From NCBI GenBank assembly GCA_965205865.1, contig CBDBHR010000024.1:64001-128000 (forward strand): 64,000 bases of DNA. Reading direction: 5' to 3'. The notes below the pieces were generated by a model, which saw only the letters and a list, made by a program, of their open reading frames with translations, was not told where the DNA came from and did no database searches. This document shows, in pieces, positions 33,714 through 42,678 of this stretch. The translations under genes were made by a program, and so were the position numbers. The stretch is from a bacterium (GTDB lineage: Bacteria > SAR324 > NAC60-12). How positions within the stretch are numbered: the first letter of the stretch is position 1; every line of letters begins with the position of its first letter.

Positions 33714-34217
33714 TTAATCCATGCCAATGTGGTTCAGTGTTTCGTCTGTTGAATTGATTGTGAATGCCCTGCCAAACCCAACCACGTATTGCCCACTTTC
33801 GGGCCTCAATGCGAATAAATGAAAATCTGCTAATGTGCGTAATATCGCGACAACTTCTCCAAATTTTTCCTGCATCGCTTGCAGTTGAGATTCATAATTT
33901 TCGTCGTCCCGTTTTATTTCCTCGACACGACAGTTAAATACGATACGCTCTCGCGCAAAAAGGTTGCCGGATTCAGATTCCGCACGAATGAACAATACGG
34001 ATGCCTGCTGATTTTTCAGCAAATTCGCAGTATGGTGAGCCAATTCACTGACGTAAATATAAAATGTACCTTCCTGATCTCGCACATAGGGCGCATAGCT
34101 GATTTGAGGAAGACTGTCTGCAGATACGGTTGCCAGGATCAGGGTTTGCTGCGAAGAAATCAATTCATGATAAGCAGTTGTGATCTTTCTCGATTCTTCC
34201 TGGCTGACTTCACTCAT
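33714..34217 (-). CDS. HugZ/HutZ-like pyridoxamine-5'-phosphate oxidase family (heme utilization) protein
   Basis: LATV...P..SYAPY, YIYVSELAHHTANL, FARER, DFHLF, VVGFGRAF. Confidence 0.85.
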   Translation of the reverse strand: MSEVSQEESRKITTAYHELISSQQTLILATVSADSLPQISYAPYVRDQEGTFYIYVSELAHHTANLLKNQQASVLFIRAESESGNLFARERIVFNCRVEEIKRDDENYESQLQAMQEKFGEVVAILRTLADFHLFALRPESGQYVVGFGRAFTINSTDETLNHIGMD

Positions 34218-34616
34218 GAGATAGCCTTTTTCACCGTGCAGTTGAAAGCTCTGATTTAACACTCATGGAACAGGCGTATTTCTCCTCATTCCTCTTATCC
34301 GAAGACCGTTGGTCCCCACCATCCTGCCCTTTCTCTTCTCAAACGGATCTCACAAGCCATGCCGAAAATGGACCGCTGAAGATTTTTTCAGCTGACCTCC
34401 ATTGTTTCGCAATTTTCCTGATCCTGACTTGCCAAAAGAATTTTTTAATCTTCCGTATTTTTCCCAATAACTCCTTTTGCTTTATCCATATCATATAAGG
34501 AGCGGATTTTCCTGATTTATTGATTTATTGATTTTTTGTAACTATTTAGGTTTCTTTAGAGCCCCCCTTCGATTTAAGCACGGAATTTGCATAGCATAAA
34601 ATTCAGGAAGGATTTT

Positions 34617-36113
34617 ATGCTCTCGAAATTTCAAAAAAAATATATTAATTCCATTTCATCGACTTCCCTCCTTGAGGCTCTTCAAGAAGCCTGTCAACTC
34701 TTTGAAGAAGAACGGGACCAATGGAAGAAAGAGCGATTAAAACTCCTCGAACGTCTCGAAATGGAAAATAAGCGTATTGAAGCTCTCGAAACAGAAAATA
34801 AGCAACTTCGGGATCAGCTGGCTCTCAACAGCCAAAACTCAAGTAAACCTCCTTCCACCGATCAAAGTCGAAAGAACAAAAGCTTACGTAAAAGCAGGGG
34901 TCGCTCTCGCGGAGGTCAACCCGGTCATAAAGGCCATCATTTGGCTTTCAGTGAATCACCAGATCATGTGGAGCCTCATTTTGTCAACACCTGTGAAACC
35001 TGTGGAGAAGATTTATCCCAGGTGGCGGTTGAGGCCACGCATAAACGTCAGGTCTTTGATCTCCCTGCTCTCCAATTAGAGGTTACTGAACACCAAGTGG
35101 AACAAAAAAATTGTCCCTGCTGCCGGCATCTGAATCACTCGAGCTTTCCAGCAGGGATAGAGGCACCCACTCAATATGGTCCCCGGATCAAAGGCTTAGC
35201 GGTTTATCTCAATCAATATCAGTTTCTGCCCTTTGATCGATGCCAGCAATTCTTTGAGGATCTGTTCGGCCAGCCGCTCAATGCGGCCACGATTTATGCT
35301 AGCCTCCAGCAAGCCGCCCATAGGCTTTATCCTTTCCAACAACAAGTGGCTGAAGCTCTGATTCAAGCGGAGGTGGTTCATTTTGATGAAACCTCTTTGT
35401 TTGAAAACAAACAACGTCGCTGGCTTCATTCAGCCTCTACCGAAGAGCTGACCTTTTATTTTATCCACGACAAACGGGGTCAAGCCGGAATGGATGCTGC
35501 CGGTATCCTGCCTCAGTTTGAAAAGACAGCCATTCATGATCACTGGGAGAGCTACCAGCATTATGAGTGTGATCATGGCTTTTGCAATGCGCATCATTTA
35601 CGTGAACTCTCTCGGGCCTATCAACAAGAAAAGGCCTTGTGGGCTCAGGAGATGAGCGACTTACTGGTAGAGATCAAAGAGCAAGTAGACCAAGCCAAGT
35701 TCAAAGAACAATCTGCTTTGAGTCCAATCCAACTGGATCACTTCCGGCAACGCTATCGTGATATCACCCAAGAAGCCCTTGAGCTCTATCCTCCCCCTCC
35801 TCAAACAAAGAAACGAGGACGCCCCAAACAGAGCAAAGCCAAAAATTTACTCGATCGCTTGATCCTCTATGAAAAGGAAAGCTTGTTATTCATGGATGAC
35901 TTCCGGGTTCCTTTTGACAACAACCAAGCCGAGCGGGATGTGCGCATGGTTAAACTGAAACAAAAAATCTCCGGCGGCTTTCGAACGGCTGAAGGATCTC
36001 GGGCTTTTTGTATCATCCGGGGAGCCATTTCCACTACCAGAAAACAGGGGAAATCCATCCTCGAGTTGCTCACTCAGGCTTTGCATCCTTCACATGCTCC
36101 TCTTTGTTACTGA
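34617..36113 (+). CDS. IS66-family transposase
   Basis: NSQNSSKPPS, GGQPGHKG, CxxC zinc finger, HFDET, CNAHHLREL, PFDNNQAERDVRMVKLKQKISG. Confidence 0.95.
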   Translation: MLSKFQKKYINSISSTSLLEALQEACQLFEEERDQWKKERLKLLERLEMENKRIEALETENKQLRDQLALNSQNSSKPPSTDQSRKNKSLRKSRGRSRGGQPGHKGHHLAFSESPDHVEPHFVNTCETCGEDLSQVAVEATHKRQVFDLPALQLEVTEHQVEQKNCPCCRHLNHSSFPAGIEAPTQYGPRIKGLAVYLNQYQFLPFDRCQQFFEDLFGQPLNAATIYASLQQAAHRLYPFQQQVAEALIQAEVVHFDETSLFENKQRRWLHSASTEELTFYFIHDKRGQAGMDAAGILPQFEKTAIHDHWESYQHYECDHGFCNAHHLRELSRAYQQEKALWAQEMSDLLVEIKEQVDQAKFKEQSALSPIQLDHFRQRYRDITQEALELYPPPPQTKKRGRPKQSKAKNLLDRLILYEKESLLFMDDFRVPFDNNQAERDVRMVKLKQKISGGFRTAEGSRAFCIIRGAISTTRKQGKSILELLTQALHPSHAPLCY

Positions 36114-36121
36114 AACTCTCC

Positions 36122-36321
36122 TTTTTTTAAACGTTCCGCCCCCTGCGTGGCCAAAAGTATTCATAGCAAACGTAGCATCGTCAATGCGATTTTGTATGTC
36201 CTGAAAACGGCTTGTCAGTGGAGAATGCTTGGCCATGATTTACCTCCCTGGCAAAGCGTTTACGATCATTATCGCCGTTGGAAAAAACGATGGACTGTGG
36301 AGCGAACATTCGCTTTTTGGC
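36122..36321 (+). pseudogene. Internally deleted IS5-family transposase remnant
   Basis: [35 protein letters not shown] fused directly to the C-terminal KRWTVERTFA motif; similar to 40982-41293. Confidence 0.85.
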
Positions 36322-36675
36322 TCATGCCGAAGATGGACCGCAATATATTTTTTTATAGCTGACCTCCATTGTTGCGCAATTCTCCTGATCCAAACTTGCT
36401 ATAGGCTTTGCGCCGCGTAGTAGTGCTGAAATCGTGCCTTGTTGTTTCAGGGAAGGAGAGGACTTCCGCTCGTTTGATTCAAAATTAGCTGTGGGAGGGT
36501 TCCCGCTCGATCGAATGAACAATACCGTGAGAGGACTTGAAAACGATGGATTCTTCCCGAGAATCTTTTTTCAATGTTATTGAACTGAACGGCTTCTGAC
36601 TGTCCCCGGATTTGAGTAGATTTATTGATTTTTTGTTTTTTTTTGCGAATCCCGAATTTATTTTACATCAGGGGA

Positions 36676-36703
36676 TTGACATTACATTTTATTGTGTTAT
36701 AAT
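36676..36703 (+). promoter_or_regulatory. Consensus sigma70 promoter with extended -10
   Basis: TTGACA (36676) - 16 nt - TATAAT (36698), TG-n before the -10. Confidence 0.7.
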
Positions 36704-36913
36704 ATGTCTTCGTTAAGGTGTTTTTATGAAAGAAGAGGGTTTCCGATCGATTGAACAATATCGTGGGAGGACTTGAAAACGATTGATCTTCCTCGGAAAT
36801 CTTTTTTCAATGTTATTGAACTGAACGGCTTCTGACTGTCCCCGGATTTGAGTAGATTTATTGATTTTTTGTTTTTTTTTTTGCGAATCCCGAATTTATT
36901 TTACATCAGGGGA

Positions 36914-36937
36914 TTGACATTACTATTGTGTTATAAT
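36914..36937 (+). promoter_or_regulatory. Second promoter copy with shortened 12-nt spacer (extended -10 retained)
   Basis: TTGACA (36914) - 12 nt - TATAAT (36932). Confidence 0.5.
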
Positions 36938-37476
36938 ATGTCTTCGTTAAGGTGTTTTTATGAAAGAAGAGGGTTTCCGATCGATTGAACAATATCGTGG
37001 GAGGACTTGAAAACGATCGATCCTCTCCGGGAATCTTTTTTAACGATATTTAATAAACGGGTTTTTCAGAGACCTAAATAGTTACGATTTTTTTTGCGAA
37101 TTCCGCATTTATTTTACCTCAGGGGGTTGAAATTGCGTAGTAGTAGTAGTGCTAGTATCGTGCCTTATTGTATTAAGGAAGGAGATGATGCGCAAAAGAT
37201 TGATCCTCTCCAAAAATTTTTTTTAACCGCACCAGCTTATCGGTCATTTCTAATGAAAGAAGGCGTGATGAAAGGTAAAATCAAAAATATCCAATTTAGT
37301 TCACTTCTGAAAAAGGAGAAATGATGAAAGAAAAAATGAAAATGAATCAAAATCAAGTAACTTCTGCCAAAAGAGGACCTATGAAACGTCAAATGAAACA
37401 ATCCACAAAAAATGGGGACACGGAACAAGTCCATGTCCCCACATTTTGCCAAAATCAAAGCGAAAAAGGAGAAACC

Positions 37477-39282
37477 ATGAAAACAAACAAAACCAGAACA
37501 ATCCAAGCAATCCTGCTGGTCCTCATCCTGGGGGTGTTTGCCCTTTCGATGGGTCCGGCAGTCGTGACCGCGCAAGAAATGGTCAAAGACCCCGGTACCG
37601 GCGAGATGGTGACTGCGCCTGAATACGGGGGAACCCTGACCCTCGGCATCGCTAATGAACCAAAAAACATTGACAGCTGGTTGGGCCATCCTTCGACGAT
37701 GAGCTTCACTCCCGTTTTAGAGAAGCTCGGTATCCATGACTGGACAGCCGATAGGAGCGTTTTTCCTTTTGGTTACTTCTCCCCTGCACAATTTGTTAGA
37801 GGAGCGCTGATTGAAAGTTGGGAACAGCCTGACCCGGTGACATATGTCTTGCAGATCCGCAAGGACGTGCGCTGGCACGATAAGGCCCCGATGAACGCTC
37901 GAGCCTTGACGGCTCAAGATGTGGAGTGGAACTATCACCGTTATTTAGGTTTGGGCAGCGGCTTCAGCAAAGGCAGTCCCTTTCTGGCCCAGTGGGGCCC
38001 CCTGGATGATGCGGGGATCGTCTCCGTCGAGGCCACTGATCCATCCACGGTGGTTTTTAAGCTGGCGAAGCCAAACCCGAATGGTTTTACGATTATTTTT
38101 ATCGACAACAACTCTGCGATGATGAACGGCCCTGAGGTGATCCGGCAACACGGTGAGATCGTCAATGAAGAGAAAATCGAAGGCGTTCAAATCCTGACCG
38201 ATTGGCGGCACCTGGTGGGCACCGGCCCCTTTATGATGACGGACTGGAGCAAGGGAACCTCGCTCACCTATCAGAAGAATGCGGACTACTGGGCTCACGA
38301 TGAAAAGTACCCGCGGAACCGCTTGCCCTATGTGGATAGGGTGAAGATGTTGGTCCTGCCGGAGGAAGCCACCCGGCTGGCAGCCCTGCGCGCGGGGAGG
38401 CTCGATTACGTGGGCTGGGTTGGTTGGGCTACGATACAATCGATCGACCAGGTGGAAAACCTGAAAAAGACCAACCCCGACATCCAGCTGTGGGGCAAAG
38501 CAGTGTCCTCGGCCAGTTCGATTGCCTATAACAGCAGCAAACCCCCCTTTACCGACATCAGGGTGCGCCACGCGTTGCAGATGGCGCTGGATCTTGAGAC
38601 TATTAACAAGACCTACTGGAAGGGTTATGCCGATGTGACACCGATAGAGTATTTGGGCACAGGCGTGGTCGGGTATCAAAACCCCTATCAAGAGTGGCCC
38701 GAAGACCTCAAGCAGTACTATCAGTATGATCCGGAAGGGGCGAAAAAGCTCCTCGATCAGGCGGGCTATCCCGTGGGCACGGACGGTTGGCGATTCGAGA
38801 CCGACCTGCAGGTCCGCGATGTCTATGACGTGACCTTCTATGAAATTGCCGCAGAGTCCTTCAGAAAGATTGGGGTGAACGTCAAGATGCTGATAATGGA
38901 TACGACGACCTGGGTCAATCATATCAATAAACGGACTTATGGCATGACTACGCATTCTTCGGGGGCCGATAGGGCCCCTGCCGACATCCTCACCCATGGC
39001 CTCACAACCTCCACCTGGAGCCCTGCCTCCGTGTGGGACCCGTATTATGACTTCCTGGTGGATGCCTTTTTAGCCGGTACCACCGTTGAGGAGCAGCAGA
39101 GGGCCTCGAAAGTGGCATCGTTGTACTTTACCTATCAACACTATTTTCTGTGGGGTGGGAAAGCTCCGGCGTTTAGTGCGGTTCATCCCTGGGTCAAGGG
39201 CTACAACGGTGAACTTGACCTTGGAGGGCTTCAGCCGGGTGCGATCCTGGCTCGTCTCTGGATTGACCAGGATTTGAAGTAA
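37477..39282 (+). CDS. ABC transporter substrate-binding protein, family 5 (peptide/nickel)
   Basis: AGGAGA RBS then signal peptide MKTNKTRTIQAILLVLILG; YGGTL, GTGPF, PFTDIRVRHAL, YDPEGAKKLL. Confidence 0.92.
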   Translation: MKTNKTRTIQAILLVLILGVFALSMGPAVVTAQEMVKDPGTGEMVTAPEYGGTLTLGIANEPKNIDSWLGHPSTMSFTPVLEKLGIHDWTADRSVFPFGYFSPAQFVRGALIESWEQPDPVTYVLQIRKDVRWHDKAPMNARALTAQDVEWNYHRYLGLGSGFSKGSPFLAQWGPLDDAGIVSVEATDPSTVVFKLAKPNPNGFTIIFIDNNSAMMNGPEVIRQHGEIVNEEKIEGVQILTDWRHLVGTGPFMMTDWSKGTSLTYQKNADYWAHDEKYPRNRLPYVDRVKMLVLPEEATRLAALRAGRLDYVGWVGWATIQSIDQVENLKKTNPDIQLWGKAVSSASSIAYNSSKPPFTDIRVRHALQMALDLETINKTYWKGYADVTPIEYLGTGVVGYQNPYQEWPEDLKQYYQYDPEGAKKLLDQAGYPVGTDGWRFETDLQVRDVYDVTFYEIAAESFRKIGVNVKMLIMDTTTWVNHINKRTYGMTTHSSGADRAPADILTHGLTTSTWSPASVWDPYYDFLVDAFLAGTTVEEQQRASKVASLYFTYQHYFLWGGKAPAFSAVHPWVKGYNGELDLGGLQPGAILARLWIDQDLK

Positions 39283-41624: not shown

Positions 41625-42678
41625 GGCTCTGTTTGCGTTTAGCATTGGTCACCCCAAAGCACAGTTGAGATAGGTCACCGGTGCGATTGAATTTCCCTGT
41701 TTTTCAAGGCATCGCCTCCATCCCAAGTAATTCGGGAGGTATTTTGTTGCAACCCCATTGAATCGACGCATCCAGCCTTTTAAACGGCTGTCATATGCGT
41801 TGACATTTTGAATGTGATAGACCTTGTTAATGACCCTGCTCTCATTGGAGGCGATCAGCCGGACATGCGCGATGTTCTCAGTGTCCGCGAATGCCCAATA
41901 AGATTTGTTCCCGTCCGTGCAAAGGACCGCATCCTGTGCCAAGACAGGCTTGAGCACTTTGGTGATCGAGACTTCGCTGAGGTCTTTCAGCACTTCGTCT
42001 GTCATCTCTCTGTGGCGGTCCCTTACGATCAGAACCGGGATTTGCTCCGCAGACAACCCCCGCTTCGTGGCTTTGCCGCCTCTTTTGCGAGCTGTGCGCC
42101 CCAGGTTCCGCGAACCTTTGAACGACTCCAGGAAGAAGGTCTCGTCGGCCTCGACTATCCCCTTGAGGCTGCTGTCCTTCTTGTCCCTCAACCCATGCAG
42201 GAAACGGTGACGCCACCGGAAACTGGTGGTGTTGTCGATCCCGCATTTTCTGGCCGCCTTGCGGACACTCAGGCCGTCAATCATCGCCTTGGAATACTCC
42301 AGCCACTTCTCCTTTTTCCGCAGGCGCGCCAAGGGAGTCCCAGTGGCTGCGTTGAAGGTCTTCAGGCAGCTTTTACAACGGTAGCGTTGCATCCCATTTG
42401 ATATTCCCCACCTTTGAAATTGAACATGCTTGCAATGAGGACAGTGCCCGCCACCGCTGATGCGCTTCTCAAGTGTCTCTGCGACTGCCTCGCCTTCATC
42501 CTTGACTCGCAAAACATCGGACAGCTTCCTTTTTTGTGCCGGACTCAACCCCTCAAGACGTGAAAGATATTGTTTGAATTCTGTATGATCCATCTCCTTC
42601 TCCTATAAAAAATTTAGCGGTTCAGGAGACAGTATGACAGATGCAAAAAATTTATCAATATTTATCACAAACAGAGCC
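41625..42678 (-). mobile_element. IS1595-family insertion sequence
   Basis: Ends GGCTCTGTTTG / CAAACAGAGCC with 8-bp target duplication AAGTTTAA (41617-41624, 42679-42686). Confidence 0.93.
41649..42593 (-). CDS. IS1595-family transposase
   Basis: CPHC and CKSC zinc ribbon, GIVEADETF, LCTDG, HIQNVN, FNGVATKYL. Confidence 0.95.
   Translation of the reverse strand: MDHTEFKQYLSRLEGLSPAQKRKLSDVLRVKDEGEAVAETLEKRISGGGHCPHCKHVQFQRWGISNGMQRYRCKSCLKTFNAATGTPLARLRKKEKWLEYSKAMIDGLSVRKAARKCGIDNTTSFRWRHRFLHGLRDKKDSSLKGIVEADETFFLESFKGSRNLGRTARKRGGKATKRGLSAEQIPVLIVRDRHREMTDEVLKDLSEVSITKVLKPVLAQDAVLCTDGNKSYWAFADTENIAHVRLIASNESRVINKVYHIQNVNAYDSRLKGWMRRFNGVATKYLPNYLGWRRCLEKQGNSIAPVTYLNCALG

Follow-up and report, generated by a model that had tools for sequence, protein, structure and literature searches.

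The window analysed here, meaning the whole 64,000-nt stretch of DNA, carries an insertion sequence at positions 34538-37085, upstream of a gene encoding a family-5 solute-binding protein (SBP) of 653 aa (37321-39282, + strand; PF00496, 2.2e-71). Inverted-repeat comparison within the window placed the left terminal inverted repeat at 34538-34564 (+; GTAACTATTTAGG...) and the functional right one at 37059-37085 (+; ...CAGAGACCTAAATAGTTAC). The repeats are 27 nt long and imperfect (81% complementary), their first letters are GTAAC, and the element is flanked by a perfect 8-bp target-site duplication, GATTTTTT, at 34530-34537 and 37086-37093 (both +). A single transposase ORF of 508 aa reads from a TTG (34587-36113, +; an ATG is found at 34618) and matches the Pfam families DDE_Tnp_IS66 (PF03050, E 2.6e-46, residues 196-472), zf-IS66 (PF13005) and DUF6444 (PF20042). 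This transposase belongs to a cluster at 98% identity, and its relatives at about 50% number in the thousands. Only 49 bp separate the left end (34538) from the ORF start (34587), which leaves no room for tnpA/tnpB, and besides the transposase and a fragment of an IS5 element no family-matched ORF of at least 60 aa was found in the element. It is a full-length IS66-family insertion sequence of the single-ORF (ISBst12) type, with the traits of that group present (IS66 catalytic domain, one ORF, imperfect GTAA terminal repeats, 8-bp duplication); a typical, non-defining trait of the group, a right end near the transposase stop, is missing in the window copy. The distance from the stop to the right end is 972 bp, all of it non-coding cargo, and the initial annotation, which had described an element with terminal inverted repeats, an 8-bp duplication and a right repeat about 970 bp past the stop, is confirmed.

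The cargo begins with a fragment of an IS5-family transposase gene (36122-36322, +; PF13340) with an internal deletion, in which a DUF4096 N-terminus is joined to C-terminal codons (PF13340, 5.2e-17 for the ORF 36147-36362); the same fragment is present within the sister-species copies (L025-L028). What follows belongs to a module of about 235 bp, which consists of a T-rich upstream tract (T), a strong predicted sigma-70-type promoter, a hairpin leader and an IS66 right end or a relic of one. Repeat comparison identified the second cargo part (36323-36618, +) as a deletion variant of this module, with a segment resembling the left flank of the element (36323-36399), one resembling the right flank (36417-36462), leader sub-repeats and a terminal relic, RE', at about 36573-36618. 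Cargo module 1 (36619-36854, +) comprises T (36619-36685), a sigma-70-type promoter, a leader and an RE' relic; its predicted promoter (36676-36703) is composed of TTGACA, 16 nt, the TG of an extended -10 and TATAAT, with 12/12 hexamer matches. Cargo module 2 (36855-37058, +) comprises T (36855-36923), the same hexamers as module 1 (36914-36919 and 36932-36937) with a spacer of just 12 nt, and a leader. At every internal module boundary a right-end-like relic is followed by T. The subterminal part of RE' can be aligned with the true right end, the last ~20 nt being divergent, and GATTTATTG comes next in 43 of the 46 copies from which its consensus was drawn; a short-form relic (...GTTCAGAGTATAGTTAC) stands immediately 5' of T. 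The uniformity of RE' over these 46 copies could indicate a native sequence rather than a decayed end. An Rfam scan of 34000-37800 with E up to 1 gave no match, and folding z-scores of the element leader (36934-37085; -1.05) and of the native leader (37160-37330; 0.04) lent no support to a stable structure. A candidate 16-codon leader ORF in module 2 was dropped, as its frame is not preserved in other module variants.

The insertion point lies within the T-tract of a resident module, whose -35 hexamer follows 43 bp further downstream (37086-37126 plus two). The left half of the split tract, made of GATTTATT repeats, occupies 34514-34537 (+) and ends with the left copy of GATTTTTT (8 nt, 34530-34537). 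On the other side, the remainder of the resident module (37094-37230, +), which has no IS right end, contains T, promoter-like hexamers belonging to the SBP gene itself (TTGAAA at 37127-37132, a (GTA)n spacer of 20 nt, TAGTAT at 37153-37158) and a piece of leader with a hairpin and a T-run. By repeat comparison, a left-flank segment (34358-34432, +) matches cargo 36323-36399, where its counterpart comes after the IS5-family fragment (84% for 34358-34388 against 36323-36353, 88% for 34383-34432 against 36350-36399). The same segment, followed by spacer, T and leader, was also found at C17:50938, C30:662995, C30:713167 and C30:1342489, and in the window it forms part of an IS-less resident module context in front of the SBP gene. 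The right flank is likewise represented in the cargo (37143-37188 against 36417-36462, 83%), and the landing site (37080-37136) has two copies inside the element (36629-36685 and 36867-36923, 81%), its GATTTATTGATTTTTT portion being repeated at 36619 and 36855. When the two internal T copies were compared with an 81-nt empty site reconstructed from the flanking sequence, 64 and 66 positions matched. Both the paired internal matches to the landing site and the diverged copies of the two flanks, which the initial annotation had pointed out, were borne out, the latter at 83-88%.

This likeness between cargo and flanks is far above chance, and the pieces involved are repeat families with dozens of genomic copies. 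The T family alone has 79 copies of at least 65% identity to the empty site in this genome, and its modules stand mostly right upstream of SBP_bac_5 genes. Agreement with the empty site is 67-70 of 81 positions for six unlinked T copies and 66 for a further nine, as compared with 66 and 64 for the element's own. The cargo resembles the landing site because both are paralogues in one repeat family, not because the cargo is a homing guide; the suggestion that the element had captured a paralogue of its target was essentially right, since target and cargo both belong to the 79-copy module family. In run X2, from another sample, a contig passes directly from 34529 to 37086, 8 letters being compatible with either side, and so represents the empty site, this evidence being a single contig with 92% likeness and a shorter side of 38 nt. 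The empty-site contig speaks for the window copy, a nested insertion, being recent. No orthologous empty site was found in the sister species, where the left-flank genes align (80%) only up to window position 34247, and where the intergenic region and the SBP gene of the window locus have no orthologue.

Transposase relatives were compared in the genomes of the sister species and then in relatives at about 50% identity or less. Six copies in this genome (1856, 1962, 1966, 2548, 2583 and 3645 bp) share the same left and right ends and have 8-bp duplications, and the sister species, G001, has four copies with such duplications (2066-2069 bp). In all copies with duplications in the two genomes, the outer right end is the end that was used, and this comparison of copies shows the whole unit, from the left end to the outer right end, to be mobile. 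Across this genome we counted 30 left and 65 right ends; one short non-autonomous copy retains both (152 bp, G000 C30:39107-39258), and several copies are internally deleted (420-1794 bp). Within the genus the passenger between the transposase stop and the functional right end measures 390 to about 2,070 bp and is non-coding, with the dead IS5 fragment and one to three modules. The copy C30:650660-648078 has a second right end 135 bp away, possibly the visible next step of capture. Outside the genus, 40 loci were examined, and 23 of them had duplications; in 21 of these 23 the right end lies 4-8 bp past the stop (length 1524-1669 bp), and the cargo is therefore an acquisition of this lineage.

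The targets of the sister copies vary. Seven of the ten copies with clean 8-bp duplications and similar cargo lie at sites unrelated to T, with the duplications AAATTGCT, CTCAATTT and GGTATTTT in this genome and TTCTGGAG, CAAGAAAA, TCCCAGAC and TCTGGATG in G001. Family sequence amounts to 64.6 kb of the 4.74-Mb genome (1.4%); it received three of the six insertions in this genome and none of the four in G001. The three lie at different positions: the T-tract in the window copy, a leader at C30:650660 and the inside of another right end at C29:145148.

The right ends are closely associated with SBP genes. The SBP_bac_5 family is hugely expanded (about 165 loci in the genome), and 31 of the 59 outermost right ends have an SBP coding start on the same strand no more than 450 bp downstream, for which simple arithmetic gives a chance expectation of about 0.8%. 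A Shine-Dalgarno-like motif and an ORF start 15-50 nt away were found at 24 of the 59, against 135 of 5000 random positions. Seen from the genes, the right-end motif stands upstream of 30 of 117 SBP loci, about a quarter, and the module-bearing genes are scattered on the SBP tree (25 changes, shuffled mean 27.8), their proteins having a median identity of 46%. Left-end or transposase remnants are retained at 15 of the 31 SBP-proximal right ends. Where elements with both ends lie upstream of SBP genes, the duplication is missing in 8 of 10; recombination, adjacent deletion or inversion, rather than simple insertion, shaped most of the IS-SBP junctions. In four close pairs of SBP paralogues, one filled and one empty, likeness ended near the coding start and no insertion boundary was seen. 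SBP genes with quite different promoters have the leader hairpin and the CCGGGAATCTTTT motif in common.

The modules are putative active promoters; two at the window copy, the terminal one (12-nt spacer) and the resident one (20-nt spacer), may both be inactive. In the RNA-library run X17, a single contig extends from the right end to within the ribosome-binding region of an SBP paralogue. X17 contigs have a word depth of 146-719 in the interval 36651-37174, as against 10-27 in the transposase gene, which is a hint only, since the depth of contigs is no measure for ranking the parts of a gene and RNA contigs reveal neither starts nor strand. In three other runs the corresponding ratios are roughly 1.5-5. 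The X17 contigs do not cover 33900-34161 and 37175-37800, and for these parts they are uninformative.

We consider it probable that an active IS66 element captured promoter modules and now moves them, so that the likeness of cargo and target reflects paralogy and involves no guide. A guide encoded by the element, in which a transcript of the cargo T would pair with a genomic site and direct insertion there, could draw only on the likeness of the T copies to the window landing site (64 and 66 of 81) and on the cargo being likely transcribed. Against it, copies with similar cargo were found at unrelated sites regardless of that cargo, and the three others lie at different family positions; moreover, the target is matched more closely by the six unlinked T copies than by those inside the element. 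These two observations refute the RNA-guided homing put forward in the initial annotation. In addition, T lies upstream of the -10 of the module promoter and is hence largely untranscribed from it, the Rfam scan was empty, and the only protein encoded is a DDE IS66 transposase, beside which the Pfam matches include no RNA-binding or nuclease partner. IS110/IS621 elements, which have a DEDD recombinase and a structured bridge RNA with loops that co-vary with both target and donor, likewise contain a non-coding segment that looks like the target, but here we find a DDE IS66 transposase, 8-bp duplications, unrelated targets and no co-variation, and the Pfam matches of the one intact ORF are IS66 domains only, with no DEDD recombinase, TnpB or Cas partner. 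A guide is thus hardly credible. Equally improbable is an assembly artefact, in which a dispersed repeat was collapsed or mis-joined into a false element with cargo: high-copy repeats do make up the region, and its borders are where short-read contigs from other samples end, but the duplication is perfect and the ORF intact, three more copies on other contigs show this order of cargo parts with 94-98% identity, the same architecture occurs in the one-contig genome of the sister species, and another sample supplied the empty-site contig.

The two other explanations concern the origin of the modules and the choice of targets. The modules could have been born from the insertion sequence instead of being captured, the ones upstream of SBP genes being decayed right halves and the window copy lying in the wreck of an older sister. 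This would account for the remnants at the 15 SBP-proximal right ends, for the likeness between modules stopping exactly at the right-end tip, for modules being much more similar than the SBP genes behind them, and for the order of pieces in the left flank (34358-34537), which is that of the interior of the deletion derivative C17:51450-50938. We nevertheless find it quite unlikely, as 21 of the 23 relatives outside the genus lack any 3' region, so that the module must have come from elsewhere; the leader hairpin with CCGGGAATCTTTT behind differing promoters suggests a motif native to SBP upstream regions, and modules without an IS right end exist, including the right flank in the window. Self-targeting at the level of DNA, with a transposase or transpososome that prefers DNA of its own family (the subterminal right end, the T-rich module) and a cargo that grows as a by-product without any RNA, would suit the three of six duplicated insertions that fell within 1.4% of this genome. 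A right end with a second copy of its last 44-45 nt is found in five places here and in one in G001, the junction letters of these tandem ends differ, as fits repeated hits at one right-end spot, and where right ends or relics border on the T-tract, four different spacings occur (in the window copy, in the short-form relic, at C25:50840 and in RE'). It resembles the insertion of IS30 and IS911 beside or into their own ends, known as IR targeting, in that copies are nested in sister right ends and right ends occur in tandem; it differs in that most insertions lie elsewhere, with no proven sequence-specific hot spot. All four insertions in G001 and three of six here are outside family sequence, however, and the three nested ones hit three different positions of the module. 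Survivorship would give the same picture, insertions being harmless in repeats upstream of promoters and lost in genes; if about a tenth of the genome tolerates insertion, which is a rough estimate, three of ten would be unremarkable, and the tandem 44-nt ends may be simple duplications. Self-targeting seems to us rather unlikely as the explanation. It is compatible with capture of the modules, and both can hold. The self-stacking or safe-site insertion considered in the initial annotation survives as a possible DNA-level bias in this genome, where half of the insertions are in-family, and does not extend to the sister species, with none of four.

Capture of the promoter modules probably proceeded, to judge from the anatomy of the copies, through a more distant right end, as in ISEcp1. 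An ancestral element would have inserted beside an SBP promoter module, and a right end farther downstream would then have been used in place of the near one (right-end skipping); with cutting at the left end and the outer right end, all DNA between them would move and an 8-bp duplication would be made, so that the module is captured. Repetition of this step would add further modules. The enlarged element and its decayed right halves would subsequently bring an outward-reading promoter before other SBP genes, a direction of module spread that we infer. The window copy itself would have arrived recently, in a T-tract whose module was already in place, and with no guide involved. The three in-family insertions of six in this genome hint at a target bias, which this reading does not need. 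A bolder version, which we regard as doubtful, sees the element as a self-extending plug-in promoter: its right end, a pile of strong promoter/leader cassettes, would be set again and again 20-45 bp before the start codons of an SBP family of more than 100 members, aided by a DNA-level preference for its own module and right-end sequences, and would wire an entire uptake regulon and re-tune it by nesting and altered spacers.

The nearest described elements share parts of this picture. For ISDge4 of Deinococcus geothermalis (ISBst12 group), insertion produced an 8-bp direct repeat, CCTCGATG, and copy-and-paste transposition was inferred from retained donor copies (PMC12898284). The group characters given there, namely a single DDE ORF with IS66 domains, imperfect GTAAC/GTGAC ends and an 8-bp repeat, are shared by the window element (PMC12898284). 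Ordinary members of the group are about 1.5-1.7 kb long and end 4-8 bp past the stop, in contrast to the passenger of 390 to about 2,070 bp in this lineage. For ISEcp1 (IS1380 family), PMC12589106 describes the use of a distant right end, by which downstream flanking DNA is taken up, and the provision of -35/-10 hexamers that read into the downstream gene. Its units are alike in having variable lengths and one common left end, as do the 1856-3645 bp forms here, each with a duplication. ISEcp1 differs, as described there, by its IS1380 transposase and 5-bp duplication (here IS66 domains and 8 bp) and by capturing genes with degenerate IRR-like ends, whereas the present element has true, pre-seeded right-end copies and a promoter/leader module, and end skipping is deduced. 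In PMC8024623, elements of the type of ISGka1 (Geobacillus kaustophilus) activate neighbouring genes from internal or hybrid promoters. ISGka1 likewise has an outward promoter near the IS end before a gene start (PMC8024623); that case concerns one selected locus, whereas here a captured, repeated cassette stands before members of a single gene family, as seen at 31 of the 59 right ends. A limited search of the IS66/ISBst12 literature returned no description of passenger capture in the IS66 family, though such descriptions may exist.

The window element is ordinary in kind and an unusual variant for IS66. A false lead is removed, in that there is no guide in this DDE IS66 element, and the case that remains is that of an IS66-family element that grew a passenger of promoter cassettes and still transposes with it. 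If the right ends drive SBP genes, promoter turnover in this genome of symbiont type would have one of its main sources in mobile DNA.

The element at window 34538-37085 is real, and the initial annotation had delimited it correctly: it has inverted ends of 27 nt (81% complementary, starting with GTAAC) and the 8-bp duplication GATTTTTT at both borders (34530-34537 and 37086-37093). Its single intact ORF (34587-36113) contains the domains DDE_Tnp_IS66, zf-IS66 and DUF6444 and lies only 49 bp from the left end, which makes it a single-ORF (ISBst12-type) IS66 member. Its domains, lone ORF, ends starting with GTAA and duplication of 8 bp all place the element in the ISBst12 group of the IS66 family, with ISDge4 (PMC12898284) as the member compared. 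The right end is located 972 bp past the transposase stop, close to the ~970 bp estimated earlier, and this long passenger region departs from the IS66 norm. We examined 40 loci of transposase relatives, of which 33 showed paired TIRs and 25 an 8-bp duplication. Among the 23 relatives with a duplication from outside the genus (42-52% protein identity; cyanobacteria, Chloroflexi and others; element length 1524-1669 bp), the right end was found 4-8 bp past the stop in 21 and 86 and 99 bp past it in the other two; in two sister-species copies of the same survey the distance was 473 bp. Judged by sequence comparison, the cargo is thus a lineage-specific gain.

The cargo consists of an internally deleted IS5-family transposase fragment (36122-36322; DUF4096, 5.2e-17), a deletion variant of a promoter/leader module (36323-36618), and two tandem modules of ~235 bp each (36619-36854 and 36855-37085). 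Repeat comparison recovered both internal copies of the landing-site sequence, as well as the left-flank and right-flank copies previously noticed in the cargo. Each module has four parts: the landing-site sequence T (a T-rich tract, then GCGAATCCCG...TTGACA), a -10 hexamer, a leader with short hairpins, and a 3' piece, which is the true right end in the last module and a right-end-like relic, RE', in the inner ones. The first tandem module contains a perfect match to a sigma-70-type promoter (36676-36703; 12/12, with TG). We also observed a ~36-nt sub-repeat, GGGTTCCCGATCGATTGAACAATATCGTGGGAGG, present in one to four copies per module leader (e.g. window 36733-36770 and 36967-37004, and C25:248889-249200 and C30:672715-673017 elsewhere in G000, the genome holding the window); it includes an imperfect palindrome, CGAT..ATTG/CAAT.ATCG, and may function as an operator or at the RNA level.

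The initial annotation had offered RNA-guided homing as one of several readings. Probes of 80 nt detected 30 left and 65 right ends across G000; matching these ends to each other gave eight complete or nearly complete copies, which were checked for duplications. Six had 8-bp duplications (GATTTTTT in the window, AAATTGCT, GTTGTGTT, CTCAATTT, GGTATTTT and ATGATATT) and two had none. The target bore no likeness to T in three of the six; the other three lay in family sequence, at three different places (T-tract, leader, and inside another right end). In the sister species G001, whose flanking genes are ~80% identical to those of G000 at the nucleotide level, the element occurs as a 2066-2069 bp form whose cargo includes the IS5 fragment and a single module, and four of the seven end pairs examined had clean duplications at unrelated sites (TTCTGGAG, CAAGAAAA, TCCCAGAC and TCTGGATG). 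The T family comprises 79 G000 copies that are at least 65% identical to the 81-nt empty site as computed; the T copies inside the element matched it at 66/81 and 64/81, whereas six unlinked copies matched at 67-70 of 81 and nine were tied at 66. The proposed comparison of cargo with flanks across copies revealed no co-variation of cargo and target. Guided homing is therefore refuted, since sister copies occupy unrelated targets and unlinked T copies match the empty site better.

A preference of the element for its own sequences at the DNA level is possible, as three of ten insertions fall in family sequence, which makes up 1.4% of the genome, and tandem 44-45-nt right ends occur at five places in G000 and one in G001; survivorship can explain this picture as well. 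At these places (C17:3026/3070, C25:132618/132662, C29:55423/55468, C29:143249/143293 and C30:1259513/1259557 in G000; L027 in G001) the terminal 44-45 nt of the right end are repeated once more immediately after it. For C29:145148-143293, the duplication ATGATATT proves an insertion inside another right end; the remaining cases may reflect either small tandem duplications or repeated hits at one spot. Some right ends are truncated to their final ~37 nt (C28:512294 and C26:195386 in G000, the right flank of L012 in G001) and adjoin a different dispersed repeat (...GATGACATA.ACACTAGGATACTC...GTCGAACTCAGGTTA), which is probably a further mobile element inserting into the IS66 right end.

Several other derivatives were noted. 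In a 152-bp MITE of this IS66 lineage (C30:39107-39258), the left end and ~50 nt of adjoining subterminal sequence are joined to the final stretch of the leader and the right end; a similar copy is found at C30:405885-405981. The 314-aa ORF with a zinc-finger-like N-terminus at window 41649-42593 (- strand), putatively IS1595/ISXO2-like, is also inserted, at C30:82850-83900 in G000, in the cargo of a 3645-bp IS66 copy that still has its 8-bp duplication. The left-end flank at C23:1030 is the reverse complement of the right flank of the copy at C24:53058, suggesting an inversion or a contig join across two IS copies.

The copies with duplications show that the transposase uses the left end together with the outermost right end, so that the passenger travels with the element. 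At every inner module boundary a right-end-like relic is immediately followed by T. RE' occurs in 46 copies, with GATTTATTG next in 43, and aligns to the true right end except for the last ~20 nt; the short form of the element has ...GTTCAGAGTATAGTTAC ahead of T, and one copy now lies 135 bp before a second right end. From this anatomy, the passenger probably grew through capture via a more distant right end. ISEcp1 transposition units are described as using more distant right ends and also bringing an outward promoter (PMC12589106); the element would work like such units, and like IS elements with outward promoters (PMC8024623), yet it belongs to neither family.

The window copy reads toward a gene at 37321 for a solute-binding protein (SBP) and has landed within a resident module, in the T-tract that precedes the module's own hexamers (TTGAAA at 37127-37132, then TAGTAT after a spacer of 20 nt). 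In a sequencing run of another sample (X2), one contig runs from 34529 straight to 37086, the 8 letters at the join fitting either side (92% likeness, shorter side 38 nt); this suggests that another population has an empty allele and hence that the insertion is recent. The -35/-10 spacers of T modules are (GTT)n or (GTA)n triplets, 14, 17 and 20 nt corresponding to n of 2, 3 and 4; among 72 G000 anchors these lengths occurred in 16, 8 and 8, respectively. The spacer is 12-16 nt in IS-type modules, and the window SBP promoter (37127-37158) has the 20-nt form. By its sequence, the triplet number looks like a device that sets, or switches, promoter strength. In an RNA library (run X17), one contig links the right end to the ribosome-binding region of a paralogous SBP gene; these contigs carry no strand or start information, and DNA was possibly present in the library.

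The expansion of SBP_bac_5-like genes in G000 is confirmed, with ~165 loci in 4.7 Mb, 117 of them at least 1400 bp long (window 37321-39282 being one), and a median pairwise identity of 46%. For 30 of the 117, the T motif was found no more than 700 bp upstream, and the right-end motif likewise for 30. With the inner end of six tandem or nested pairs set aside, 59 outermost right ends remained; 31 had an SBP coding start within 450 bp downstream on the same strand, and 24 had an SD-like motif and ORF start 15-50 nt away, as compared with 135 of 5000 random positions. Left-end or transposase remnants are kept in 15 of the 31 SBP-proximal ends, the left end in 10. The duplication is absent in eight of these 10, so recombination or adjacent rearrangement shaped most such IS-SBP junctions. 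On a FastTree tree of 100 intact SBP segments (17 loci with stops excluded), the 33 module-bearing genes were unclustered (25 changes, compared with a mean of 27.8 over 500 shuffles, 72 of which gave values as low), and their median protein identity was 46%; the modules are therefore far more recent than the genes they precede, with many gains or losses. Very close SBP paralogue pairs share coding sequence and have wholly different upstream regions, as if coding cassettes had been exchanged between expression sites. Many SBP ORFs open with a common stretch, M..KKFLAP..GL.VADVVSAAK... (e.g. downstream of C25:258916, C27:116915 and C29:532729), whose DNA is a G/C-rich palindromic piece (ggcccg...gggctgaccgtggcag), at times twice in a row; this stretch may represent a dispersed repeat that is translated.

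Repeated promoters of other types stand before further SBP genes and have a hairpin and CCGGGAATCTTTT in common, and modules lacking an IS end exist, the window's right flank included; both observations suggest that this type of leader is native to the DNA upstream of SBP genes. T, leader and right-end modules also precede SBP genes in G001, and one junction is identical in both species (right end, then GCAAAATTTAAGTAAA...ATG). As a nested IS that has taken up passenger DNA and bears an outward promoter, the element is of a known kind, in a form that is unusual, and well preserved, for IS66.
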